From positions 45,632,001-45,696,000 of the forward strand of contig OX597825.1 of NCBI GenBank assembly GCA_951406725.2: a stretch of DNA of 64,000 bases, given 5' to 3'. The position numbers and the translations under genes are program-made. The notes under the pieces were generated by a model. That model had not been told where the DNA came from. It made no database searches and saw nothing but the letters and a program-made list of their open reading frames with translations. Shown in pieces: positions 1 through 41,198 of the stretch. The DNA comes from Octopus vulgaris. Its lineage: Eukaryota. How positions within the stretch are numbered: position 1 is the first letter of the stretch; each line of letters opens with the position of its first letter.

Positions 1-320
1 GTCAAGTTAAAGGAAACTATGCATTCTCCCCTTAGTTTTTTTAATTTTTTTATACTCCATGTAAAATTAAATAGATTTGTCAAAATATATATAAATATCT
101 ATATGCTTGTAAATCCAATCAGTAATGATCGTTTCATTAGGAGTATATAGAATATTAAGAAAGAGAGGAGCTATAAGATGAATATATTTATTTCACTTGT
201 TGACATCCATATAATGATGATCATTTCATAGCCTTTATTACAGAGAAACAATTTATTTTAGTATATAATAAATAATAAATTATTTTACATGCTTGTATTA
301 ATGTATATGATATAAATTGT

Positions 321-655
321 GAAGGCACATGGCTCAGTTGGTTGGAGTGTCGAGCTTACAATCATGAGGTTGTGAGCTCGAATCCCAGACCGGGCTGTGT
401 GTTGTGTTCTTGAGCAAGACACTTTATTTCACGTTGCTGCAATTCACTCAGCTGTAGAAATGAGTTGCGACATCACAGGTGCCAAGCTGCATCGGCCTTT
501 GCCTTTCCCTTGGATAACACTGGTGGCAAGGAGAAGGGAGGCCAGTATGCATGGGTGACTGCTCATCTTTCATAAACAAACTTGCTCGGACTTGTGTCTC
601 GGAGGGTAATTTTCTAGGTCCAATCCCATGGTCAGTCATGACCGAAGGGGGTCTC
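321..655 (+). mobile_element. tRNA-derived SINE, full length (V/CORE-like central domain)
   Basis: Head has A box-like tggctcagttgg and B box-like gagctcgaatccc. Core is gtgttcttgagcaagacactt. The same body recurs at 52446-52570 (+) and 58725-58975 (-). Confidence 0.85.
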
Positions 656-1048
656 TCATATAATATAAATTATATAGTACAGATGTATGATTTATAAAAA
701 TAACATAGTAAGCCAACTGGAAAGAAAGTCAAAAGGAGAGCAAGCTAAAACGAGTGCAAGCCAAAAGGAGAGCAGGCCAATTGTGGTAGTAGTGGCTAAT
801 TCAAATTTGTTTTTTAGTACTTATTTGCAATATTTTGACAGATTTTGTATCCTGAAAACTTTTGAGACTTTAATGATCTCTTGGATAAATATAATCTTAT
901 TATCAATCTGTTAACTTATATTTACCCAAGAGATCAATCAAGTCACAAAAGTTTTCAGAAAACAAAATGTCAAAATATTGCAAATAAGCATAAAAAAGTG
1001 AACACAATTACTAATTCAAATTTGTATTTTCGTACTTATTTGCAATAA

Positions 1049-3030
1049 GGAGAGCAAGCAAACTGGAGAGCAAGCCAAAAGGAGTGCAAGGCAAAAGGAG
1101 AGCAAGCCGAAATGAGAGCAAGCAGAAAGGAGAGTAAGCCAACTGGAGAGCAAGCCAAAAGGAGTGCAAAGCAAAAGGAGAGCAAGCAGAAAGGAGAGTA
1201 AGCCAACTGGAAAGAAAGTCAAAAGGAGAGCAAGCTAAAAGGAGTGCAAGCCAAAAGGAGAGCAGGCCAAAAGGAGAAGTCAAAAGTTTTCAGAAAACAA
1301 AATGTCTCAAAATATTGCAAATAAGCATAAAGAATAGAACACAATTGCTAATTCAAATTTGTTATTTTTTAGTACTTAATTGCTATATTTTGACACATTT
1401 TGAATCCTGAAAACATTTGAGACTTTAGTGATCGCTTGGATAAATATAATATTATCAAAGTTAACATCACTAACAAAATGTGTCAAAATATTGCAAATAA
1501 GCATAAAAAAGCGAACAAAATTGCTATGCAGTTTGTATCCTGAAAACTTTTGAGACTTTAGTGATCTCTTGGATAGATATAATCTTATCATAAAGTGAAC
1601 ACAATTGCTAATTCAAATTTGTTGTTTTTCGTACTTATTTACAATATGGAGAGCAAGCCAAAGGGAGTGCAAGGCAAAAGGAGAGCAAGCCAAAAGGATA
1701 GCAAGCAGAAAGGAGAGTAAGCTAACTGGGAAGAAAGCCAAAAGGAGCAAGCTAAATGGAGTGTAAGGCAAAAGGAGAGCAAGCCAACTGGAGAGCAAGC
1801 CAAAAGAAGTGCAAGGCAAAAGGAGAGCAAGCAGAAAGGAGAGCAAGCCAACTGGAGAGCAAGCGAAAAAGAAGAGCAAGCCAAAAGGAGAGCAAGCAGG
1901 AAGGAGAGTAAGCCAACTGGAAAGCAAGTCAAAAGGAGAGCAAGCTTTAGAAAGGAGTGCAAGCCAAAAGACAAAAGTTTTCAGAAATTTGTCAAAATAT
2001 TGCAAATTGCTAATTCAAATTTGTTATTTTTTAGTACTTAATTGCAATATTTTGACACATTTTGTATCCTGAAAACTTTTGAGACTTTAGTGATCGCTTG
2101 GATAAATATAGTATTAGCAAAGTTAGAGACTTTAGTGGGAAGAAGGCCAAAAGGAGAGCAAGCCAAAAGGAGAAGTCAAAAGTTTTCTTGGGTAAATATA
2201 AGTAAACTGATTGATAATAAGATTGTATCTATCCTCTTGGATAGATACAATCTTATTATCAATCAACCCGAAAGGAGAAGTCAAAAGTTTTCTTGGGTAA
2301 ATATAAGTAAACTGATTGATAATAAGATTGTATCTATCCAAGAGGATAGATACAATCTTATTATCAGTTTACTATATACTTACCCAAGAAAACTTTTGAC
2401 TTCTCCTTTCGGCTTGCTCTCCTTTTGGCCTTCTTCCCAGTTCTCCTTTTGGCTTGCTCTCTAGTTGGCTTGATCTCCTTTCTGCTTGCTCTCCTTTGGC
2501 TTGCTCTCCTTTTGGCCTTCTTCCTTTGGCTTACTCTCCTTCCCGCTTGCTCTCCTTTTGTCTTGCACTCCTTTTGGCTTGCTCTCCTTTTACCTTGCAC
2601 TCCTTTTGGCTTGCTCTCCTTTTACCTTACACTCCTTTTGGCTTGCTCTCCAGTTGGCCTGCTCTCATTTCTGCCTGCTCTCCTTTTAGCTTGCTCTACT
2701 TTTGCCTAGCACTCCTTTTGGCTTGCTCTCCTGTTGGCTTGCTCTCCTTTCTGCTTGCTCTCCTTTTGGCTTGCTCTCCTTTTGCCTAGCACTCCTTTTG
2801 GCTTGCTCTCCAGTTGGCTTGCTCTCCTTTTAGCTTGCTCTCCTTTAAGCTTGCTCTCCTTTTAGCTTGCTCTCCTTTTGGCTTGCTCTCCAGTTGGCTT
2901 GCTCTCCTTTCTGCTTGCTCTCCTTTTGGCTTGCACTCCTTTTGCCTAGCACTCCTTTTGGCTTGCTCTCCTTTCTGCTTGCTCTCCTTTTAGCTTGCCC
3001 TCCTTTTGCCTTGCACCCCTTTTGGCTTGC
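1049..3030. repeat. 16-bp minisatellite arrays (ggagagcaagccaaaa and variants)
   Basis: Arrays lie at ~1049-1275 (+), ~1648-1968 (+) and ~2400-3030 (inverted). Shorter arrays are at ~710-780, 8697-8876, 11058-11237, 13423-13602 and 14160-14339. Confidence 0.9.
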
Positions 3031-6000
3031 TTTCCATATTGTAAATAAGTACGAAAAGACAACAAATTTGAATTAGCAGCATAGCAAATTTGTTCACTTT
3101 TTTATGCATAAGCATTGCAATATTTTGACACATTTTGTTTTCTGCGATCACTGAAGTCTCAAAAGTTTGTGTCAAAATATTAAGTACTAAAAAACAACAA
3201 ATTCGAATTAGCAATTGTGTTCACTTTTTAGGATACAAAATGTGTAAAAATATTGAAATTGGGACAAAAAACAACAAATTTGAATTTGCAAAATTGTTCA
3301 CTTTTGATGCATTTGATTTTCATAAAACTTATGTGACTCGAGTGATGTCTTGGATAAATAGAAGTTAACTGATTGATAAAATTGTATTTATCCAAGAAAT
3401 CAATATAGTCTTAAAAGTCTTCAGGACAAGTGTCAAATAATTGCAAATAAATACCAACAAATTTGAATTTGCAATTTTATCCTTTTATGCTCATTCGCAA
3501 TATTTTGAAACATTTTGTTTTCTAAAAAGTTATATTTACCAAAGAGATCACTCAAGTCTTTGTGACTTAAGTGATCTTTTGGGTAAATATAAGTTGTCAG
3601 TAAAGCAAATGTGACATTTTTCTAAAAGTGTTCTTATGCTTATATATACTTTTTATGCTTATTTGCAATATTTTGACACGCTTTTTTTTCTGAAAAGTTT
3701 ATCAGTTAACTGATTAATAAGATTATATTTATATTGATCTCTTTGATCAAAAAAACGTGAAAAGTTTTCAGTATACAAAATGTGTCAAAATATTGCAAAT
3801 AAGTACAAAAAAAACACAACAAATTTGAATTTTTATGTTTATTTGCAATATTTTGACATTTTGTTCTCTAAAAAGTTTTGTGATTTGAGTGATCTTTTGG
3901 GTAACTGATTGATAATAAGATTATATGTATCAAAGAAATCACAAAGACATCAAAACTTTTCAGTATACAAAATGTGTCAAAAAAATGTAATTAGGACTAA
4001 AAAACAATCAAAGACATCACTACAAAATACTAAAAAACGACAAATTTCAATTTCCAATGTTCTTATGCTTGCTTATTTGCTTATTTTGACACGTTTTGTT
4101 TTCTGAAAAGTTTTGCGTATATATAAGTTAATTGATTGATAATAATATCATATATTCATCTAAAAAGTTTTCAATAAAGCAAATATTGCAAATAAGAACA
4201 AAAAAAATTTGAATTACCCATTTTGTACTTTTCAATATTTTAATACATTTTGTATATTTACCCAAGAGATCACTCACACCACAACTTTCTCGAAAACAGA
4301 ATGTCAAAATATTGCAAAGAAGTGAATTAATTGCAATATTTTGACACATTTTGTATACTGAAAAGTTTTGATGTTTTTGTAATCTCTTTCATAAATTAAT
4401 TATTTAAGTTAGTTAACTTATGTCAAAAGTGTTTTCAGAAAACATGTCAAAATATTGTCAACATAATATTGTCAAAATATTGTCACCTTAATAACTGTTT
4501 CAAAATATTGCGAATGAGCATAAAAGGATAAAATTGCAACGATAAATATCCAAGAAATCACTATAGTCTTAAAAGTCTTCAGGATACAAGTGTCAAATAA
4601 TTGCAAATAAATACTGAAACCAACAAATTTGAATTTGCAATTTTATCAATCTGTTAACTTCTATTTACCCAAGAGATCACTCGAGTCACATAAGTTTAAT
4701 AAAAATCAAATGCAATAAAAGTGACCAATTTTGCAAATTCAAATTTATTTTTTGTCCCAATTTTAATATTCTTACACATCTTGTATACTAACTTTTGCTG
4801 TTTTTGTGAACTTTTTGATCAATCAAATAACATATTTACCAAAGAGATCACTCAAATCACATAACTTTTCCGAAAACAGAATGTAAAAAATATTGCAAAG
4901 CAGAAGTGAACTAAATTGCAAATACTTATTTGCAATATTTTGACACATTTTGTATACTGAAAACCTTTCACGTTTTTGTGATCTCATTGATGATTATAAT
5001 TTTATTAATCAGTTAATCAGAAAAATGTCACATTTGCTTTACGGACAACTTTTTAGAGGTCACTCAAAATATTGTAAATAAGCATAAAAAGTGAATAAAA
5101 TTGCAAATTTAAATTTGTTGTTTTCTAGTATTTGCAATATTTTGACACATCTTGTATACTGAATAGTTTTCATGTTTTTGTGCTCTCTTTGATAAATATA
5201 ATCAGCTAACATATCAGGCAATTCACAAATGTCTTTTGAAAGCAAGATGTTTTAAAATATTACAAATAAGCATAAAGAAAAAGCAAAATTGCTTATTGAA
5301 TGTTGGTCCTTTTTCGCAATATTTTAAAACATTTGCATTACTGAAAACTATTTACATTTTAGTGATCTCTTGGATAATAATATAATAATATAATAATAAT
5401 AATAATAAGTTAACTTACTCAAGAGCTTACTCAAGTCACAAGTTTTCTGGAAGCAAAATGTGTTTAAATTTTGCATATAAGGAAACAAAAGAAAACAATA
5501 TTGATAATTCAAAATTAGTTTATGTGTGTATTTACACGTGCATTCTGAAGACTATCGTGATAACTTGGATATATTATATTTACCTAACAGATCAAGCAAG
5601 TCACAAGTTCTATGAAAATTAAATATGGGAAAATATTGCAAAAAAGCATAAAAAGCAAAATTGCAATTTCAAGTTTGTTGTTTTTTTATCGTATTTTTAA
5701 TATTTTCACACATTTCACATACTGAACTTTTGGATCAATGAAATAACTGATAGTTACCTAAGAAATCACAAAAAAAGTAACAAAATATTTTAGAAAACAA
5801 AATGTGTCAATATATTATAAATAAGTAAAGGAGTGAACAACATTGCAAATTCAAATTTGTGTTTTTGTACTTATTTGCAACATTTTGTATGCTGAAAACT
5901 TTTCACGTTTTTGTGATAAGTATAACCTCATTAATCATTTAACATATTAACAAAGAGATCACTCAAGTAGCAAAACTTTTCAGAAGACACAAAATTTTGT

Positions 6001-8621
6001 AAAGAAGCATAAAAAGTGAACAAAATTGCAAATTTAAATTTATCTTGTTCTTATTTGCAATATTTTGACACATCATGTCTCATTTACTCCATATTTGCAC
6101 TTTATTTTCCAAAGTGGATCTGGTACATGCCGTAACCACTGCCGTAACCACTATGTTTGGTTTATTCGAATTCCTGTCCATTCCTGAGAAATACTGCCAG
6201 TACATTCCAGCGTTATGATTTGAGTGATCTCTTGGGTAAATATGTTAACTGATCATAAAGACTTCGAAACTCAAAGTATTGCAAAGTACTAAAAAACTTT
6301 TCAGAAAACAAAACGTTTCAAAATATTGTAAATAAGCATAAAAAGTAAACTAAATTGCAAAATTAAATTTGTTTTCTAGTACTTATTTGCAATATTTTGG
6401 CACATCTTGTATATTGAATAGTTTTGTGATCTCTTTGATAAATATAATCGTATCAGCAGTCAGTTGACATATATGTCTTTTAAATGTCTTTTAAAAGCAA
6501 AATGTTTTAAAATATTGCAAATAAGCATAAAGAAGGAAACAAAATTGCTTATTGAATGTTGTTATTTAATAATTATTTGCAATATTTTGAAACATTTACT
6601 TTACTGAAAACTGCTTAGATTTTAGTGATTTCTTGGATATTAAACTTACATTTACTCCAGTCACAAGATTTCTGGAAACAAACTGTTTAAATTTATTGTT
6701 TTCAGTATTTTTTGCAATATTATAAAATATTGCGAATGAACATAAAAGGAGAAAATTGCAAATTCAAATTTGTTGGATTCAGTATTTAATTGCAATTACT
6801 TGATACTTGTCCTCAAGACTTTTAAGACTATAGTGATTTCTTGGATATTATTTGACACTTTTAAGACTATAGTGATTTCTTGGATAAATATCCAAGAAAT
6901 CACTATAATCTGAAAAGTCTTCAGCATACAACAATTGTCAAATAATTGCATATAAATACTGAAACAAACAAATTTGAATTTGCAATTTTGTCAATCTGTT
7001 AACTTCTATTTACCCAAGAGATCACTCGAAATTTTTTATAAAAATCAAAAGCACCAAAAGTAAACAATTTAGCAACTTCAAATTTCTTGTTTTTTGTCCC
7101 AATTTTAATATTCTTACACATTTTGTATACTGATAACTTTTGCTGTTTTTGTGAACTTTTTGATCAATCAAAACATATTTCGCACGAATTTACTCAAGTC
7201 ACAAAACTTTTTAGAAAGCAAAATTAGTTAATATATTGCATACAAATATAAGAAGTGAACAACATTGCAATTTCAAATTTGTCGTTTTTTAGTACTTTGC
7301 AATACTTTGAGTTTTGGTATGTTTATGATCTTTAGTTAGCTTATATTTTCCCAAGAGATCAATCAAATCACAAACTTTTCAAAAACAATGTCAAAACATT
7401 GCAAAGAAGCATAAGAAGTGAACTAAATTGCAAATTGAAACAACTGAGATAGATGTTGAAGATGAGTATGTTCAATTTTATTGCTGGAAGTCATCTACAT
7501 ACGTTGATGGAAGGTATATGGTGATACGCATGTACCAGATCCACTTCGGCAAATATAGTGCAAACGTGGAGTAAATGAGAGGTCCTTTAAGTTAGGTAGG
7601 GGACAATGATTGGGCGTGGTGATAGCATTAAATCTCCTGTAATTACCAATGCATCTAAAATCTGCTTCACCCATCTGAGCTAAGTGTAGCGGAGGTGCCC
7701 AAGGGCTAGTATGACGTATAATACCGAATTCAGCCTGTTAGGTAAATATCAGTTATTTCATTGATGCAAAAGTTCACTATAAGTTTTCAGTATGTGAAAT
7801 GTGTGAAAATATTAAACATAGGACAAAAAACATCAAACTTGAAATTGGAATTTTGCTGTTTATGTTTTTTTGAAATATTTTCCTATACTTTAACAAAAAA
7901 AGAACAAAATTTTCTGCGATCACTGAAGTCTAAAAAGTTTTAGGATACAAAATGTGTCAAAATATTAAGTACTAAAAAACAACAAATTCTGTTAGGTAAA
8001 TATAATATATCCAAGTGATCACGATAGTCTTCAGAATGCACGTGTTAAAATATTGTAAATACACACAAAAACTAAATTTTAATTATCAATAATGTTTTAC
8101 TTTTTTCCTTATTTGCAAAATTTAATCACATTTTGCTTCCAGAAAACTTGTGACTTGAGTTAAACTCTCAAGTAAATGTAAGTTAGATCACTAAAATCTA
8201 AATAGTTTTCAGTAATGCAAATGTTTTAAAATATTGCGAAAAAGGCCCAACATTCAATAAGCAATTTTGTTTTTTCTTTATGCTTATTTGCAATATTTTA
8301 AAACATCTTGCTTTCAAAAGATATTTGTGACTTGCGTTAGCTGACCGTAAGGCAAATGTGACATTTTTTCTGATTATTAAATTATAATCATCAAAGAGAT
8401 CACAAAAACGTGAAAAGTTTTCAGTATACAAAATGTGTCAAAATATTGCAAATAAATATTTGCAATTTATTTCACTTCAGCTTCTTTGCAATATGTTGAC
8501 ATTCTGTTTTCGAAAAAGTTATGTGATTTGCGTGATCTCTTGGGTAAATATGTTATTTTATTGATCAAAAAGTTCACAAAAACAGCAAAAGTTAGTATAC
8601 AAAGTGTGTAAGAATATTGAA

Positions 8622-11600
8622 ATTGCAAATAAGCATAAAAAAGTGAACAAATTTGCTATGCTGCTAATTCAAATTTGTTGTCTTTTCGTACTTATGCCAA
8701 CTGGAGAGCAAGCCAAAAGGGGTGCAAGGCAAAAGGAGAGAAAGCCAAAAGGAGAGCAAGTAGAAAGGAGAGTAAGCCAACTGGGAAGAAGGCCAATAGG
8801 AGAGCAAGCTTAAAGGACTGAAAGGAAAAAGGAGAGCAAGCCAAAAGTAGAGCAAGCAGAAAGGAGAGCAAGCCAATAAGCAATTATGTTTTTTCTTTAT
8901 GCTTTTTGGCAATATTTTAAAACATCTTGCTTTCAAAAGATATTTGTGACTTGCGTTAGCTGATTATATTTATCAAAGAGAGCACAAATACTAGAAAACA
9001 ACAAATTTAGATTTGCAATTTTATTCACTTTTTATGCTTATTTACAATATTTTGTGTGATCTCTAAAAAGTTGACCGTAAAGCAAATGTGACATTTTTCT
9101 GATTAACTGATTATTAAATTATAATCATCAAAGAGATCACAAAAACGTGAAAAGTTTTCAGTAAACAAAATGTGTCAAAATATTGCAAATAAATATTTGC
9201 AATATGTTGATATTCTGTTTTCGAAAAAGTTATGTGATTTGCGTCATCTCTTGGGTAAATATGTTATTTGATTGATCAAAAAGTTCACAAAAACAGCAAA
9301 AGTTAGTATACAAAATGTGTAAGAATATTGAAATTGGGACAAATAACAACAAATTTGAATTTTCAAAATTGTTCACTTTTATTGCATTTGATTTTTATTA
9401 ATCTTGTGACTCGAGTTAATAGAAGTTAACAGATTGATAAAATTGCAAATTCAAATTTGTTGGTTTCAGTATTTATTTGCAATTATTTGACACTTGTTGT
9501 ATCCTGAAGACTTTTAAGACTATAGTGATTTCTTGGATATTTATCCTTGCAATTTTATCCTTTTATGCTCATTCGCAATATTTGGAAACAGTTATATTTA
9601 CAGTTATATTCTAAAAAGTTACAAAGACTTGAGCGATCTCTTTGGTAAATATAAATTTTTTGATTGATCAAGTTCACAAAAACATTTTGACGTTTTCTCA
9701 GTTAACTAAATCAGTTAACTTATATTTTCAGACAACAAAACGTATCAAAATATTGTAAATAAGCATAAAAAGTAAACAAAATTGCAAAATTAAATTTGTT
9801 TTACTGAAGTCGCAAAACTTTTCAGAAAACAAAGCGTGTCAAAATATTGCAAATAAGCATAAATAGTATATATAAGCATAAGAACACTTTCAGAAAAATG
9901 TTACATTTGCTTTACTGACAACTTTTTAGATAGGATAAATATATTATTATCAATCAATTAACTTATATATACCCATTCAGAAAACAAAATGTATCAAAAT
10001 ATTGTAAATAAGCATAAAAAAGTGAACAAAATTGCAAATTTAAATTCGTTTTCTAGTACTTATTTACAATATTTTGTCACATCTTGTATACTGAATAGTT
10101 TTGTGATAAATATAATCGTATTAGCAATTGTCTTTTGAAAGCAAAATGATTTAAAATATTGCAAATAAGCATAAAGAAGAAAACAAAATTGCTTATTGAA
10201 TGTTGTTACTTAATATTTTAAAACATTTGCTTTACTGAAAACTAGTCAGATTTAAGTGCAAGTCACGTTGTTTTTAGTATTTATTTGCAATATTTTGACA
10301 CTCGTTTCATCCTGAAGATCTCTTGGACTGTTGTTTTCTAGTCCTAATTACATTATTTTGACACATTTTGTATACTGAAAAGTTTTGATATGTTTCATAA
10401 ATATAATCTTATCAATTAAAGTTAGTTAACTTATATTTATTTAAGTCAAAAGTGTTTTGAGAAAAAATGTCAAAATATTTTCAACTTATAATGTTTTTGT
10501 GAAGTTTTTGATCAATCAAATAACTTATATTTACCCAAAAGATCACTTAAGTCACAAAGACTTTTAGAAAACAAAATGTTTCGAAATATTGCGAATGAGC
10601 ATGAAAGGATAAAATTGCAAATTTAAATTTGTTGGTATTTATTTGCAACTCTTTGACACTTGTCCTGAAGACTTTTAAGACTATATTGATTTCTTGGATA
10701 AATACAATTTTATCAATCAGTTAACTTTAAAGTATTATGAAAATCAAATGCATCAAAAGTGAACAATTTTGCAAATTCAAATTGTCCCAATTTCAATATT
10801 TTTACACATTTTCTATCCTAAAAAGTGAACACAATTGCTAATTCGAATTTGTTGACTTCTAGTACTTAATATTTTGATACATTTTGTATCCTGAAACTTT
10901 TGAGACTTCAGTGATCGCTTGGATAAATAGTCAATCAGTTAACTCAAGTCACAATAGGTTTTAGAAAACCAAATGTCAAAATATTGCAAATAAGCATAAA
11001 AAAGTGAACAAATTTGCTATGCTGCTAATTCAAATTTGTTGTCTTTTCGTACTTATGCCAACTGGAGAGCAAGCCAAAAGGGGTGCAAGGCAAAAGGAGA
11101 GAAAGCCAAAAGGAGAGCAAGTAGAAAGGAGAGTAAGCCAACTGGGAAGAAGGCCAATAGGAGAGCAAGCTTAAAGGACTGAAAGGAAAAAGGAGAGCAA
11201 GCCAAAAGTAGAGCAAGCAGAAAGGAGAGCAAGCCAATAAGCAATTATGTTTTTTCTTTATGCTTTTTGGCAATATTTTAAAACATCTTGCTTTCAAAAG
11301 ATATTTGTGACTTGCGTTAGCTGATTATATTTATCAAAGAGAGCACAAATACTAGAAAACAACAAATTTAGATTTGCAATTTTATTCACTTTTTATGCTT
11401 ATTTACAATATTTTGTGTGATCTCTAAAAAGTTGACCGTAAAGCAAATGTGACATTTTTCTGATTAACTGATTATTAAATTATAATCATCAAAGAGATCA
11501 CAAAAACGTGAAAAGTTTTCAGTAAACAAAATGTGTCAAAATATTGCAAATAAATATTTGCAATATGTTGATATTCTGTTTTCGAAAAAGTTATGTGATT

Positions 11601-14600
11601 TGCGTCATCTCTTGGGTAAATATGTTATTTGATTGATCAAAAAGTTCACAAAAACAGCAAAAGTTAGTATACAAAATGTGTAAGAATATTGAAATTGGGA
11701 CAAATAACAACAAATTTGAATTTTCAAAATTGTTCACTTTTATTGCATTTGATTTTTATTAATCTTGTGACTCGAGTTAATAGAAGTTAACAGATTGATA
11801 AAATTGCAAATTCAAATTTGTTGGTTTCAGTATTTATTTGCAATTATTTGACACTTGTTGTATCCTGAAGACTTTTAAGACTATAGTGATTTCTTGGATA
11901 TTTATCCTTGCAATTTTATCCTTTTATGCTCATTCGCAATATTTGGAAACAGTTATATTTACAGTTATATTCTAAAAAGTTACAAAGACTTGAGCGATCT
12001 CTTTGGTAAATATAAATTTTTTGATTGATCAAGTTCACAAAAACATTTTGACGTTTTCTCAGTTAACTAAATCAGTTAACTTATATTTTCAGACAACAAA
12101 ACGTATCAAAATATTGTAAATAAGCATAAAAAGTAAACAAAATTGCAAAATTAAATTTGTTTTACTGAAGTCGCAAAACTTTTCAGAAAACAAAGCGTGT
12201 CAAAATATTGCAAATAAGCATAAATAGTATATATAAGCATAAGAACACTTTCAGAAAAATGTTACATTTGCTTTACTGACAACTTTTTAGATAGGATAAA
12301 TATATTATTATCAATCAATTAACTTATATATACCCATTCAGAAAACAAAATGTATCAAAATATTGTAAATAAGCATAAAAAAGTGAACAAAATTGCAAAT
12401 TTAAATTCGTTTTCTAGTACTTATTTACAATATTTTGTCACATCTTGTATACTGAATAGTTTTGTGATAAATATAATCGTATTAGCAATTGTCTTTTGAA
12501 AGCAAAATGATTTAAAATATTGCAAATAAGCATAAAGAAGAAAACAAAATTGCTTATTGAATGTTGTTACTTAATATTTTAAAACATTTGCTTTACTGAA
12601 AACTAGTCAGATTTAAGTGCAAGTCACGTTGTTTTTAGTATTTATTTGCAATATTTTGACACTCGTTTCATCCTGAAGATCTCTTGGACTGTTGTTTTCT
12701 AGTCCTAATTACATTATTTTGACACATTTTGTATACTGAAAAGTTTTGATATGTTTCATAAATATAATCTTATCAATTAAAGTTAGTTAACTTATATTTA
12801 TTTAAGTCAAAAGTGTTTTGAGAAAAAATGTCAAAATATTTTCAACTTATAATGTTTTTGTGAAGTTTTTGATCAATCAAATAACTTATATTTACCCAAA
12901 AGATCACTTAAGTCACAAAGACTTTTAGAAAACAAAATGTTTCGAAATATTGCGAATGAGCATGAAAGGATAAAATTGCAAATTTAAATTTGTTGGTATT
13001 TATTTGCAACTCTTTGACACTTGTCCTGAAGACTTTTAAGACTATATTGATTTCTTGGATAAATACAATTTTATCAATCAGTTAACTTTAAAGTATTATG
13101 AAAATCAAATGCATCAAAAGTGAACAATTTTGCAAATTCAAATTGTCCCAATTTCAATATTTTTACACATTTTCTATCCTAAAAAGTGAACACAATTGCT
13201 AATTCGAATTTGTTGACTTCTAGTACTTAATATTTTGATACATTTTGTATCCTGAAACTTTTGAGACTTCAGTGATCGCTTGGATAAATAGTCAATCAGT
13301 TAACTCAAGTCACAATAGGTTTTAGAAAACCAAATGTCAAAATATTGCAAATAAGCATAAAAAAGTGAACAAATTTGCTATGCTGCTAATTCAAATTTGT
13401 TGTCTTTTCGTTCGTACTTATGCCAACTGGAGAGCAAGCCAAAAGGGGTGCAAGGCAAAAGGAGAGAAAGCCAAAAGGAGAGCAAGCAGAAAGGAGAGCA
13501 AGCCAACTGGGAAGAAGGCCAATAGGAAAGCAAGCTAAAAGGAGTGCAAGGCAAAAGGAGAGCAAGCCAAAAGTAGAGCAAGCAGAAAGGAGAGCAAGCC
13601 AATAAGCAATTTTGTTTTTTCTTTATGCTTATTGGCAATATTTTAAAACATCTTACTTTCAAAAGATATTTGTGACTTGCGTTAGCTGATTATATTTATC
13701 AAAGAGAGCACAAATACTAGAAAACAACAAATTTAAATTTGCAATTTTATTCACTTTTTATGCTTATTTACAATATTTTGAGTGATCTCTAAAAAGTTGA
13801 CCGTAAAGCAAATGTGACATTTTTCTGATTAACTGATTATTAAATTATAATCATCAAAGAGATCACAAAAACGTGAAAAGTTTTCAGTATACAAAATGTG
13901 TCAAAATATTGCAAATAAATATTTGCAATTTATTTCACTTCAGCTTCTTTGCAATATGTTGACATTCTGTTTTCGAAAAAGTTATGTGATTTGCGTGATC
14001 TCTTGGGTAAATATGTTATTTTATTGATCAAAAAGTTCACAAAAACAGCAAAAGTTAGTATACAAAGTGTGTAAGAATATTGAAATTGCAAATAAGCATA
14101 AAAAAGTGAACAAATTTGCTATGCTGCTAATTTAAATTTGTTGTCTTTTCGTACTTATGCCAACTGGAGAGCAAGCCAAAAGGGGTGCAAGGCAAAAGGA
14201 GAGAAAGCCAAAAGGAGAGCAAGTAGAAAGGAGAGTAAGCCAACTGGGAAGAAGGCCAATAGGAGAGCAAGCTTAAAGGACTGAAAGGAAAAAGGAGAGC
14301 AAGCCAAAAGTAGAGCAAGCAGAAAGGAGAGCAAGCCAATAAGCAATTATGTTTTTTCTTTATGCTTTTTGGCAATATTTTAAAACATCTTGCTTTCAAA
14401 AGATATTTGTGACTTGCGTTAGCTGATTATATTTATCAAAGAGAGCACAAATACTAGAAAACAACAAATTTAGATTTGCAATTTTATTCACTTTTTATGC
14501 TTATTTACAATATTTTGTGTGATCTCTAAAAAGTTGACCGTAAAGCAAATGTGACATTTTTCTGATTAACTGATTATTAAATTATAATCATCAAAGAGAT

Positions 14601-16194
14601 CACAAAAACGTGAAAAGTTTTCAGTAAACAAAATGTGTCAAAATATTGCAAATAAATATTTGCAATATGTTGATATTCTGTTTTCGAAAAAGTTATGTGA
14701 TTTGCGTCATCTCTTGGGTAAATATGTTATTTGATTGATCAAAAAGTTCACAAAAACAGCAAAAGTTAGTATACAAAATGTGTAAGAATATTGAAATTGG
14801 GACAAATAACAACAAATGTGTAAGAATATTGAAATTGGGACAAATAACAACAAATTTGAATTTTCAAAATTGTTCACTTTTATTGCATTTGATTTTTATT
14901 AATCTTGTGACTCGAGTTAATAGAAGTTAACAGATTGATAAAATTGCAAATTCAAATTTGTTGGTTTCAGTATTTATTTGCAATTATTTGACACTTGTTG
15001 TATCCTGAAGACTTTTAAGACTATAGTGATTTCTTGGATATTTATCCTTGCAATTTTATCCTTTTATGCTCATTCGCAATATTTGGAAACAGTTATATTT
15101 ACAGTTATATTCTAAAAAGTTACAAAGACTTGAGCGATCTCTTTGGTAAATATAAATTTTTTGATTGATCAAGTTCACAAAAACATTGTTGACAATATTT
15201 TGACGTTTTCTCAGTTAACTAAATCAGTTAATTTATATTTTCAGACAACAAAATATTGTAAATAAGCATAAAAAGTAAACAAAATTGCAAAATTAAATTT
15301 GTTTTACTGAAGTCGCAAAACTTTTCAGAAAACAAAGCGTGTCAAAATATTGCAAATAAGCATAAATAGTATATATAAGCATAAGAACACTTTCAGAAAA
15401 ATGTTACATTTGCTTTACTGACAACTTTTTAGATAGGATAAATATATTATTATCAATCAATTAACTTATATATACCCATTCAGAAAACAAAATGTATCAA
15501 AATATTGTAAATAAGCATAAAAAAGTGAACAAAATTGCAAATTTAAATTCGTTTTCTAGTACTTATTTACAATATTTTGTCACATCTTGTATACTGAATA
15601 GTTTTGTGATAAATATAATCGTATTAGCAATTGTCTTTTGAAAGCAAAATGATTTAAAATATTGCAAATAAGCATAAAGAAGAAAACAAAATTGCTTATT
15701 GAATGTTGTTACTTAATATTTTAAAACATTTGCTTTACTGAAAACTAGTCAGATTTAAGTGCAAGTCACGTTGTTTTTAGTATTTATTTGCAATATTTTG
15801 ACACTCGTTTCATCCTGAAGATCTCTTGGACTGTTGTTTTCTAGTCCTAATTACATTATTTTGACACATTTTGTATACTGAAAAGTTTTGATATGTTTCA
15901 TAAATATAACCTTATCAATTAAAGTTAGTTAACTTATATTTATTCAAGTCAAAAGTGTTTTGAGAAAAAATGTCAAAATATTTTCAACTTATAATGTTTT
16001 TGTGAAGTTTTTGATCAATCAAATAATTTATATTTACCCAAAAGATCACAAGTCACAAAGACTTTTAGAAAACAAAATGTTTCGAAATATTGCGAATGAG
16101 CATGAAAGGATAAAATTGCAAATTCAAATTTGTTGGTATTTATTTGCAACTATTTGACACTTGTCCTGAAGACTTTTAAGACTATATTGATTTC
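8622..16194 (+). repeat. Higher-order tandem duplication, 2361-bp unit
   Basis: The anchor attgcaaataagcataaaaaagtgaacaaatttgctatgc occurs at 8622, 10983, 13344 and 14085. Identical spurious ORFs occur at 8664, 11025 and 14127. Confidence 0.9.
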
Positions 16195-17531
16195 ATACCA
16201 GCTGATGCATTATCCAAATTTCCTGTGTTCACTTTCGTCTCCTGCAATTTGATTGCTGTCGCCACACACCAACCTTTTTTGGACTCTTTGGAGACTTCTT
16301 CCAACGAATAATTGCAGATTTGAATTCCTACCAATCTTCCATCTGCTAAAAGATCTGCTGAAATACTTACGTCTTCCATCCTTTGTGGACCGCTTGTTCC
16401 ACATCATCATCAGTGTACTATTTCCAATGCTCTTCATTCCAATCACATTCCTGCATAGCCTTCACGATAAGGCTCAATACAACCCATTTCTTCTGACCGT
16501 CACTAGTTGGACACGTTTGTATTGTCAACGTCCCAAGGTCCTTAGACATATTCGTGCTCCTCTCGAAAAATTCAGCCCACCGGATGCTCGTTTCCGTCAT
16601 GTCAACATCGACATTGTTGGACCATCGCCCATTAGTCGCGGTTTCACGAGCCTCTTGACTTGCATCGATTGCTTCTCTCGATGGCCTGAAAACATACCTC
16701 TGATTGACACCACAGCCCAAGCGTTCATTTCCAATTGCTTTGGTGTCCCATCTAAAATAACCACTGATAGGGGACGCCAGTTTGAAGCTTCTTTATTTTG
16801 TAAAATACTCTTGGGTGCTCATCGAATTCATACCATGGAATTATAGAACAATTCCACAGACAGTTAAAAGCTGCACTACGCGCTACTCCTGATCTGCAAC
16901 GTTGGAGCGAATTCCTACCCTGGTTGCCGTTCTGTTGTTAAGACACAGTTGATTCATCAGATTCTGATACATCATACATCAACAGACTTCGTTCTTACTT
17001 CTCCAATCTTCCACCAATGTCTCTGCGCGATTAATCCATTTCTTCTACTGTCCCATCAGATATCTCACGAAAAAACTTCATAGTCGACGTTAATGGTCAA
17101 AAAGAAACAATATCCATCACCTCTAAACTTTATATCACAAGAAGTGGCAGAACAGTACATTGGCTACAAAAATTATCCAGAACTATTTATATTTAACGTT
17201 GTATTACAAAACAAACTGCTTGCTATTTCTTTTACAAAAGAACATTTGTTCAAAACCATTTTTCTCATGCACATTTCACATTGTATTTTTCATATTGCCA
17301 TGTTTTGCATTTAGTTTGATGTGCATAGCTGTGTATAAAGGTTTGCTGCACCAAACTCTGCAATTATATTCAGTACCTATCACAATGCATGTATTGATTT
17401 TCTCCTATTTTACTACTTGTTTTGCAAGCACATATTTCTGCACATATTTCTGCTACGTCGTTTTGCTTCATATCTACCCTGGATCACTACAATGATTTTG
17501 CTTATCGACTTCTCGCCTGGGGAGGGAGTTA
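16195..17531 (+). mobile_element. Gypsy LTR retrotransposon 3' internal fragment (RNase H end and integrase), degenerate
   Basis: IPADALS at 16195 (RNase H end). Integrase core motifs FRHVNIDIVGP, LLTCIDCFSRWPE and FGVPSKITTDRGRQF. Polypurine tract ggggagggag at 17519-17528. Confidence 0.85.
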
Positions 17532-19167: not shown

Positions 19168-21623
<2,456 letters not shown>

Positions 21624-21670
21624 ATGTTGCGAGCAGAAGCGAGTTTCTACTATCTGTAGCAGATAAGGTG

Positions 21671-39300: not shown

Positions 39301-41198
39301 GAGCTATCATTCCCGTCATTTTTTTTTCAGCCGGCATATTTATCCCATGTCTTCTTTTAAAGACCGTGTGATTATGGAGATTTGGTTATTTGTAGTAAGT
39401 CGTACAGCTATGTAGAATGTTAATACTCATCGAAAATTGAAGTTTTTCTAATGTTTTTAATAATGAGATTATGAAATAAATGAAGTATAGAATAGAAGTA
39501 CTTTTGGTTTCGTAAATTTTGAAATTGAGGACATTCATTTTTAGACAGTTTTAGATATCATTTGCCTATAATTTTCTTAGCCGACTTTTTCATATTAATT
39601 TATAGCATGAAAATGACAATATAGTTGGTCAAGATATTTTAGAATGCTGTACTCTAATGTAAATTATATTGGAACCCATCTGGAAGGACCCCCTTTACAC
39701 ACACTCACCTTTCTTCCAACAGTAATTAATAGGTCCGGCAGATCGCTTCTGCTTTTCTCTCACTTAAGTGACAATGCATTTTGTCAGTTTGAAAATACTA
39801 TAATTTGCTTCCGTAGTGTAACTTGTGAAAGTTCATTTAAACAATTGTGGTTGCATCTTCAGGTCAGCTTATTCTTTTAGATGTTTTTTTTTTGCACAAC
39901 GCATTACAATAATTTTGATTTAAAGTTTTTACTATACACTGTGTAATATGCTTATGTTGAACGATTTCAAAATGTCTTAGATTTTTAATTTCCTGCCGCT
40001 TTTGAAAGCTAATTGTCATGTATTAAGTCACGATAGAAAAGTACAGATTAGAAGCTGACTTTAGTCTGACTAACTTTAAAGCTTGCTACGATTATTTCCA
40101 AGTAGCCTGTAACTAGCAAATATACTCGAATTTAACAAGGTAACTTTTTGTCCTTTTACAGACAGCAATAATAAAGAACAATCCTCGTAAATATCTGAGG
40201 AGCGTTGGGGATGGTGAGAAAGTCGAGTTTGATGTCGTCGAAGGAGAAAAAGTAAGCTGTATAATTTGAATATTTTTATTAACCAATAACTTCATACTTC
40301 CGCGGCTGTTCAAAGATCTAAATCAAGTTGCTTTATTGTAGGGAAATGAAGCTGCCAATGTCACTGGACCTGGTGGAAATCATGTGCAAGGCAGCAAATA
40401 TGCTGCTGATCGACGCAGATTTCGACGGGGATGGTGGAACAGGAGAAGGCGAGGTGCTGCCAGGGAAGTGAAGGCAAGTGTTTTTTTTTTTTTTTGTTAA
40501 ATGTTTAAAATTAATGGTGTAGCATTTAAGAGGCTTTGAATTCTTGTGAATTTTTAATGACAATGCAGTAATTTGCAGTAAAATGTTTAACTTATGTAAT
40601 TATAGTTGAATTCTTTTTCTTGTAGGAGGGTGAGGAAGCTAAAGAAGAAGTTGAAGGTGAAAGTGGTGATGGTGGTGGTAGTGAAGAAAGGAACAGGCCT
40701 CCAACCAGGCGCAGGCCATACTGGAGAAGAAAGCGTTTCTTCCGTGGGCCAAGACGAGGTATGCCGTCTAGAAGTGTTCCTCAGGATGAGCATGGATCAG
40801 CTGGTGAAGGAGATTCAAGGATGCATGGCCCTCCCCCTTTCCGTCGGCGACGTCCCTTCTTCCGTAGATACTATCGTCCTCCCATGCATCGCTATCCCCA
40901 TGGTGGCCCTCCAAGGGATAATGAACATGAAGATGATAGTGGCCAATCTGTTCCCCAAGCTTTCCGGAGACGACCCAGACGTACCAGAGGTGGTGGCAGC
41001 TTTAGGCGAGGTAGATGGAGTTCCCGGGGAGGACGTTCAGGTCAGAGGGAGCTGTCTGAAGGTGAACCAGGAATTAATGAAAGTGGTAACCAGAAGGCCG
41101 AAGACAGTGTTCCTCCTAACAAATCTGAAGACAGCATGTCTGGGCCTCCTTCTTCAAGTGCAGAGGTAACTCCAGCTGCCTCTCAGGCTGCTGCCTAG
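36318..41198 (+). CDS. YBX1: Y-box binding protein (cold-shock domain), 6 coding exons, 323 aa
   Basis: join(36318..36396,37010..37073,38963..38996,40162..40251,40342..40473,40626..41198) = 972 nt, in frame. CSD reads [71 protein letters not shown]. The C-terminus has alternating Arg/aromatic and acidic blocks. The ATG context is gccATG. Confidence 0.95.
37010..37073 (+). CDS. YBX1: YBX exon 2 (RNP1, KSGYGFI)
   Basis: Acceptor tttttcag|, donor cg|gttagt, 64 nt. Confidence 0.95.
38963..38996 (+). CDS. YBX1: YBX exon 3 (RNP2, DVFVHQ)
   Basis: Acceptor tttgcag|, donor cag|gtgagt, 34 nt. Confidence 0.95.
40162..40251 (+). CDS. YBX1: YBX exon 4
   Basis: Acceptor ttttacag|, donor aaa|gtaagc, 90 nt. 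Confidence 0.95.
40342..40473 (+). CDS. YBX1: YBX exon 5 (probable GC donor)
   Basis: Acceptor ttgtag|. Reads [27 protein letters not shown]. Donor aag|gcaagt. Confidence 0.85.
40626..41198 (+). CDS. YBX1: YBX exon 6 (Arg-rich/acidic C-terminus and stop)
   Basis: Acceptor tttttcttgtag|. In frame with ORF 40761-41198, which ends in TAG. Confidence 0.9.
   Translation, partial: EGEEAKEEVEGESGDGGGSEERNRPPTRRRPYWRRKRFFRGPRRGMPSRSVPQDEHGSAGEGDSRMHGPPPFRRRRPFFRRYYRPPMHRYPHGGPPRDNEHEDDSGQSVPQAFRRRPRRTRGGGSFRRGRWSSRGGRSGQRELSEGEPGINESGNQKAEDSVPPNKSEDSMSGPPSSSAEVTPAASQAAA

Follow-up and report, generated by a model that had tools for sequence, protein, structure and literature searches.

A scrambled array of a palindromic satellite in Octopus vulgaris and its likely one-armed derivative

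The dumbbell monomer and its cluster

The window (the whole 64,000-nucleotide stretch of Octopus vulgaris DNA analyzed here) contains a 15.4-kb cluster of dumbbell-shaped satellite fragments, with one near-complete monomer noted at its left end (Table 1). A sequence-only reading of this DNA had described a ~215-bp satellite unit at positions 795-1047 and spoke of a tandem array of it. The unit is real, but the array in the window is not a regular one: positions 795-1047 are one 215-bp monomer and a further 38 bases, and the remainder of the cluster is a mosaic. The first 8 kb of the cluster contain 57 jumps in 6,049 family bases, of which 16 are strand switches, as called with a purpose-made parser for which arm-to-arm switches are ambiguous (the arms are 89% alike).

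Table 1. Features of the satellite cluster, in window positions
Feature	Position	Strand	Remark
Whole cluster: scrambled array of dumbbell fragments, both orientations, interleaved with 16-bp minisatellite	795-16194		
Near-complete dumbbell monomer, 215 bp	795-1009	+	208/220 columns identical to the family consensus
Arm A, inner 75 bp	818-892	+	Retained in the 141-bp form
Loop 1	893-916	+	Least changed part among 220-bp copies; retained in the 141-bp form
Arm B, inner 74 bp	917-990	+	First ~23 bp alone retained in the 141-bp form
Outer stem plus loop 2, followed by a truncated second monomer (its first 38 bases)	991-1047	+	
16-bp purine-rich minisatellite block	1048-1276	+	
Further 16-bp minisatellite blocks	710-780, 1648-1970, 2425-3035, 8703-8876, 11064-11237, 13429-13602, 14166-14339		2425-3035 on the minus strand
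Local fold-back palindrome of loop-1 fragments on alternating strands	2186-2424		
Scrambled monomer fragments	3036-8620		Part is an old inverted duplicate (77-85% identity) of sequence to the right
Non-family insert	7441-7734		Inverted partial copy at 6082-6215
Recent higher-order tandem duplications of the scrambled array	8339-16194		Offset 2,361 bp, 96.7-98.4% identity

All four parts of the monomer described in that reading (arm', loop 1, arm and loop 2) are present. Its imperfect reverse-complement arms are borne out as well: positions 818-892 agree with the reverse complement of 917-990 at 66 of 76 aligned columns. The anatomy of two arms and two loops stands, but what was called loop 2 is mostly stem, and the arms extend to ~95-100 bp with a terminal loop of ~8 nt. 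The pairing far exceeds that of shuffled sequence. Folded as DNA, positions 795-1047 reach -61.6 kcal/mol (z = -13.8), and folded as RNA they reach -85 kcal/mol (z = -12.8); in neither case was any of 200 dinucleotide shuffles as good. The family consensus, built from the better copies, is 220 bp long with ~25% GC, and is an inverted dimer of a ~100-bp unit with terminal loops of ~8 and ~20 nt. Loop 1 resembles overlapping candidate sites of PBX, MYB and GATA type; this loop is changed in the C29 and C30 subfamilies.

The 142 kb examined for the window cluster contain neither a gap nor a telomere repeat. Abutting the right end of the array, positions 16253-16846 hold an integrase-like fragment of a Gypsy-type retrotransposon (identified by eye), and positions 19178-21627 hold a 2.4-kb near-perfect 4-bp microsatellite (613 copies, 99%). 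An open stretch at 40626-41198, rich in Arg, Pro and acidic residues, resembles a C-terminal exon of a Y-box protein. We also considered the 16-bp minisatellite as an obligate partner of the family and rejected this idea: the two are neighbors at C12 and C29, but at C6 and C8 the minisatellite occurs by itself across 20 kb.

Distribution, ends and flanks of the family

We searched the genome (2.8 billion bases in 227 pieces, ~30 of them chromosome-scale) with DNA and pattern searches, whose counts are lower bounds. The family comprises at least 18 clusters, none shorter than 0.9 kb, spread over 15 chromosome scaffolds and a small one, together with at least six solo pieces of 70-190 bp each. 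The fetched regions hold 151,580 family bases, counting together the 220-bp dumbbell and the 141-bp form described below, which as a rough check is compatible with a few hundred dumbbells. Head-to-tail arrays of the 220-bp dumbbell occur at C26, C11 and C19, and non-coding monomers of the family are repeated head to tail, as in a satellite, over 17.5 kb (C27, 141-bp form), 16 kb (C30, 141-bp form) and 15 kb (C26, 220-bp form). Loop orientation is constant at C26 (no strand switch in 36 jumps) and mostly so at C11, C10 and C20. Other arrays have flipped loops, and at C12:45.596-45.600 Mb the flipped isomer is itself tandem. The arrays begin and stop at unrelated positions of the monomer. The papers searched yielded no description of this family and no octopus satellite or centromere repeat; the satellite family is real and apparently undescribed, although repeat libraries may contain an entry for it.

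The arm-loop-arm anatomy and the size would also fit an origin as a MITE or foldback element, its terminal inverted repeats ~100 bp long, later tandemised to give the satellite. The consensus arms are 89% reverse-complementary, thus supplying the inverted termini of such an element, and MITE-derived satellites have been documented (PMC12628747, in excerpt). The solo pieces argue otherwise: none of the six is a full-length arm-to-arm element, and their ends differ and lie at unrelated monomer positions. At the C18 solo copy, whose left junction is spanned by exact contigs in runs X3, X6 and X8, paralogous contigs without the insert show an empty site with no target-site duplication in four of four runs. 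There is likewise no target-site duplication at C20 34.98 Mb, and the flanks of 19 edge pairs share only short AT-rich matches, except inside simple repeats, with no fixed-length duplication. A ~44-bp duplication seen by eye around the C17 array was considered as a target-site duplication but, sitting within a 15-bp minisatellite, was discounted. Moreover, the spacer between the would-be elements is constant, at just ~8 or ~20 nt. For the present copies the MITE reading is largely refuted, and as an account of the monomer we consider it improbable.

No element end of the conserved kind that defines Helitrons or Helentrons is common to all loci, and no Rep or reverse-transcriptase partner is common to loci among the matches listed. 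A TG-rich low-complexity tract adjoins 5 of the 18 clusters, and a Helitron-like helicase fragment adjoins one of them. This tract is strand-biased, ~0.1-2 kb long, and was seen at the edges of the C10, C14 (30.227 Mb), C26, C7 and C17 clusters. This helicase fragment, a broken Helitron/PIF1-like one recognized by eye from its translation, directly follows a scrambled 141-type array at C11:54,695,947-54,696,381, and a 360-bp tandem dimer occupies C11:56,405,949-56,406,652, 8 kb from a dumbbell cluster.

One solo piece lies at C20:34.98 Mb (L108:5130-5280), where ~60 bases of the 141-bp form link two LINE parts that are not adjacent in the element, with microhomology of 7 nt and 2 nt at the junctions. 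Microhomology at the junctions of captured DNA is expected from established end-joining biology, and this piece fits capture during break repair rather than transposition. The two LINE parts appear oppositely oriented (C20:34.981 Mb). At C30:13,484,151, a 124-bp family piece lies between two inverted LINE ends.

The 141-bp form: origin, abundance and chromosomal setting

The 141-bp unit consists of arm A, loop 1 and ~23 bp of arm B, and its consensus aligns end to end with these parts, so that ~79 bp of the dumbbell are missing. Arrays of this type lie on seven scaffolds: C11 (54.68 Mb), C17, C23, C27, C28, C29 and C30. Having lost most of the palindrome, this high-copy form keeps a 24-bp dyad, and its circular fold has a z of -4.6. 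We compared arm A, arm B and the 141-bp form in six locus consensuses and found 9-12 columns private to B and 0-2 private to A. Counted as events, the private changes stand at ~7:1 (B:A), with one-sided p = 0.035 and two-sided p = 0.07 in a small test with no outgroup. In addition, the 220-bp consensus carries a 4-nt repeat at both ends of the missing piece. The excess of B-private changes and the junction repeat together favor, with no outgroup, a deletion from the dumbbell, and the alignments thus make it likely that the 141-bp form arose from the dumbbell in this way.

The opposite polarity, with the 141-bp satellite ancestral and its 24-bp hairpin extended by fold-back to give the dumbbell, draws on the fold-back switches found inside the 141-type arrays at C23, C29 and C11 (54.68 Mb), and on a two-sided polarity p of just 0.07. 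It predicts equal numbers of A-private and B-private sites, whereas ~1 versus 7 were observed. Furthermore, dumbbell copies are more diverged (80-95% identity to consensus) than the large 141-bp arrays (96-97%), and lie outside them on C27. We therefore regard this polarity as unlikely.

The abundance of the two forms differs sharply. Using the solo copy at C18, we placed contigs from four public runs along it and took exact single-copy contigs as the reference for depth. The hairpin common to both forms stands at ~5,700 (X2), 80,000 (X3), 25,000 (X6) and 58,000 (X8) times the single-copy depth, while the part found only in the 220-bp form stands at ~130-630 times that depth in the same four runs; a separate depth analysis of X3 and X8 agrees that the hairpin far exceeds the 220-only part. 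Loose contig ends at the common hairpin spell the 141-bp junction. Depth summed over contigs does not equal copy number and, with a 14-fold spread among runs, gives the order of magnitude only; on this scale the 141-bp form is high-copy (~6,000-80,000 times in four of four runs) and the 220-bp form is low-copy. A 141-specific motif has 296 matches in the assembly (control, 7). This number, set against a depth of thousands of times single copy, implies that most 141-bp copies are likely unassembled, and the 141-bp form likely became a major heterochromatic satellite. No run with family sequence is recorded as RNA. Of two further runs, X1, whose RNA status is a guess, gave one 267-nt contig (depth 2.7) that lies on the C19 array with no differences, and X11 behaved like DNA.

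On C27, a gap is followed by 141-bp units over 17.5 kb; beyond these come 9 kb of scrambled dumbbells and, last, other DNA. The 118 141-bp monomers here are 96.8% identical to their own consensus, the scrambled dumbbells form a 704-bp higher-order repeat, and identity declines with distance from the gap (rho = -0.31, 130 units). The 141-bp array of C30 shows the opposite: its identity decays toward the gap (rho = +0.38, 103 units), which does not fit the layer model of C27. Seven of the 18 clusters lie at most 0.9 kb from a gap and three lie at most 2.2 kb from telomere repeats; taken together, a gap or telomere repeat lies at most 2.2 kb from 10 of 18 clusters, but in none of 20 control stretches of 10 kb (p = 0.0001). 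Telomere adjacency alone gives 3/18 versus 0/20 (p = 0.10), and gap adjacency is not specific, because any long repeat breaks contigs, whatever its function. In sequence context alone, the neighbors of the clusters include telomere repeats, rDNA and other satellites. Three of the 18 clusters lie 2.4-5.2 kb from small-subunit rRNA sequence; we rejected the idea that the arrays are fixed parts of the rDNA spacer, since the junctions differ among the three loci.

Several of these regions are composite. On C28, telomere repeats lie 12 kb away from the cluster, at a contig end. At C28:20,938,467-20,946,491, a 5-bp satellite passes into telomere repeats, and these stop at a mid-scaffold gap, which indicates that a true chromosome end has probably been scaffolded internally; the assembly misplaces at least one telomere. 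The terminal patchwork of C17:1-70,000 comprises a decayed dumbbell, an AC-rich tract, a 15-bp minisatellite, telomere repeats, 16 kb of a 5-bp satellite and an inverted duplication with two 141-bp arrays, followed by a long telomere-repeat tract from 55.3 kb. The inverted pair was considered as the terminal repeats of a large Polinton-type element, but the flanks are duplicated too, which makes it a segmental inverted duplication. At C7:109,398,270-109,400,337, amplification of a 1,057-bp unit has multiplied dumbbell fragments together with degenerate telomere repeats.

These settings raise a further question: is the 141-bp form a functional centromeric repeat, with the dumbbell arrays as dead outer layers of older centromeres? 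This candidate role is an extension of the best explanation and not an alternative origin, and we consider it possible but rather unlikely. It would accord with the nucleosome-sized AT-rich unit, its phased A/T tracts and its 24-bp dyad, with the high read depth of a form nearly absent from the assembly, and with the layered order on C27. Karyotype and C-band data are from PMC5646656 and PMC6160780 (both in excerpt); a karyotype table in the former gives 36 of 60 chromosomes as telocentric in O. vulgaris from Japan, which would place centromeres beside telomere repeats. Dyads are also enriched at many centromeres, according to the part of PMC5889037 used here. On the other side, where one array per chromosome might be expected, the family is found on at least 18 of the ~30 chromosome scaffolds and 141-type arrays on at least seven, in an assembly that misses most copies. 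The arrays lie on one side of each gap only, and the C30 array has the reversed gradient noted above.

Pairing, spread and related systems

Does the octopus dumbbell owe its spread to its structure? The sequence-only reading proposed that a circularised monomer would fold into a closed rod, and took a tandem array of it as the expected product of rolling-circle or rolling-hairpin copying. The first proposal is upheld by prediction: folded as a circle, the 220-bp consensus gives an unbranched closed rod with 78% of its bases paired (z = -15.2). The second has less force: any tandem amplification leaves head-to-tail order, which therefore does not single out rolling-circle copying, and the tests for a structured replicating template were negative. 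The further proposal that transcripts would be largely dsRNA, and candidate ADAR or small-RNA substrates, likewise lacks support.

These tests bear on a specific alternative, namely that the spread of the dumbbell took place through a free, closed, single-stranded circle of DNA or RNA, copied by rolling-circle or rolling-hairpin replication, and that the arrays are integrated concatemers. The near-perfect rod predicted for the circular consensus, the unrelated positions at which arrays start and end, the existence of both loop isomers (the flipped one tandem on C12) and a size and low GC content like those of metazoan retrozyme repeats (PMC7229834, in excerpt) are all in its favor. Covariation was evaluated in 22 representatives of 30 rows, drawn from 207 distinct matches (13 of the 22 from C26). 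Excluded were rows with identity below 80%, the 141-type loci, C10, the outer layer of C27 and one row from C7. Across 66 stem pairs in the 22 monomers, 1,075 cells are unchanged, 236 are changed on one side and 25 on both sides. Only 11 of these 25 double changes restore the pair, compared with 8.3 expected (one third; p = 0.18), which is no excess of compensatory change. The double changes themselves number 25 versus 15 expected under independence, partly as variants common to related copies. Stems are altered as often as loops, at 10.8% of positions versus 7.3% in loop 1 (p = 0.03) and 10.7% in the loop-2 region. Arms resemble their own partners (0.742) no more than they resemble those at other loci (0.733; p = 0.32).

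Other signs of a replicating circle gave the same answer. There is no A-to-G bias (26 A-to-G versus 31 T-to-C changes, p = 0.43). Window positions 1-17000 gave no Rfam ribozyme match at E ≤ 1, and neither consensus contains a hammerhead core on either strand. The 26 weak Rfam matches in the same 17 kb are all below the gathering score and belong to hairpin-type miRNA models and one thermometer. The lack of a Rep or reverse-transcriptase partner common to loci among the matches listed also counts against a free circle, which we hold to be very improbable. A replicating RNA or DNA circle is thus unsupported, and the decaying pairing without compensation indicates that the structure is a by-product of one inverted duplication and not a conserved fold. 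Still more daring is the notion of the 220-bp unit as a mobile, covalently closed dumbbell, a ~100-bp duplex with two hairpin caps that host polymerases copy into concatemers; these would be pasted at chromosome ends or breaks without transposase, fixed ends or ribozyme, and one deletion product would have taken over as the main, possibly centromeric, satellite. We rate this scenario as decidedly improbable.

We instead think it probable that the array in the window, now decayed and scrambled, belongs to a 220-bp satellite whose monomer is a near-complete palindrome, and that a 141-bp one-armed form in the same genome, likely derived from it by deletion, likely became a major heterochromatic satellite. 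A single fold-back or template-switch event would have generated the inverted copy of a ~100-bp unit. Ordinary DNA-level satellite processes may then have amplified the dimer into the head-to-tail structure that is observed, and exchange among repeat-rich chromosome regions would have moved it between them. The long arms would allow arm-to-arm strand switches, giving flipped loops and scrambled arrays in which pairing is not preserved. In agreement with this step, 15 of 77 distinct strand switches lie within 8 nt of the pairing partner, compared with 6 expected (p = 0.0007), which fits what arm-to-arm recombination or template switching would give. Next, as the diagnostic sites and the 4-nt junction repeat suggest, ~79 bp of arm B would have been deleted, and the shorter unit with its 24-bp dyad would have expanded; read depth shows, as an order of magnitude, thousands or tens of thousands of copies, mostly missing from the assembly. 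Finally, short pieces may have been captured at DNA breaks by microhomology-guided repair.

Hairpin-tip excision was considered as a cause of the deletions and rejected: 12 of 198 distinct same-strand jumps fall at hairpin bases versus 10.0 expected, and with no enrichment there the palindrome does not explain the deletions. Junction microhomology is just slightly higher than its null (1.25 versus 1.00, sd 0.09).

It is instructive to compare this family with known systems. The satellite of Tribolium brevicornis (Mravinac et al. 2005) reportedly has long inversely oriented subunits in a monomer of ~1 kb. By description, the octopus monomer is alike in its two inverted subunits and potential large dyad, but its unit is 220 bp with almost no spacer, and its one-armed derivative outgrew it. 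In Tribolium madens, TmSat1 and TmSat2 are two satellites from one ~110-bp element with array-scale dyads; both species have two related satellites, intermingled arrays, orientation switches and a putative (peri)centromeric location, but the T. madens dyads span kilobases of arrays with conserved inversion sites, whereas the octopus dyad lies within the monomer and its switch points vary (PMC13081366, as far as the excerpt goes). Short dyads are common at centromeres, and the octopus repeats resemble dyad-rich centromeric satellites as AT-rich tandem repeats with predicted non-B structure; the dyads surveyed in the excerpt of PMC5889037 are shorter than 10 bp, compared with 24 bp in the 141-bp form and ~100 bp in the 220-bp form.

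Metazoan non-LTR retrozymes have low-GC monomers of 150-450 bp with hammerheads, and share with the octopus family their size, low GC, short tandem arrays at many loci and predicted stable circular fold; unlike them, the octopus family, known here from DNA alone, has no hammerhead found and its pairing is not conserved (PMC7229834, partial text). ODIRA involves hairpin-capped intermediates that arise by template switching in yeast, on large origin-bearing segments; the octopus family, in contrast, is known from arrays alone, with no hairpin-capped intermediate seen (PMC10766183, partial text).

The 141-bp unit provides a concrete probe for FISH or CENP-A ChIP and a candidate repeat of octopus heterochromatin or centromeres, and its depth indicates that a chromosome-scale assembly likely lacks most copies of this satellite. 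The two forms also appear to record a satellite succession within one genome: a monomer with a long palindrome became scrambled and stayed at a few hundred copies, and a derivative, rid of most of the palindrome, went on to reach numbers one to two orders of magnitude higher. Such a succession bears on the amount of dyad symmetry that a satellite can carry.
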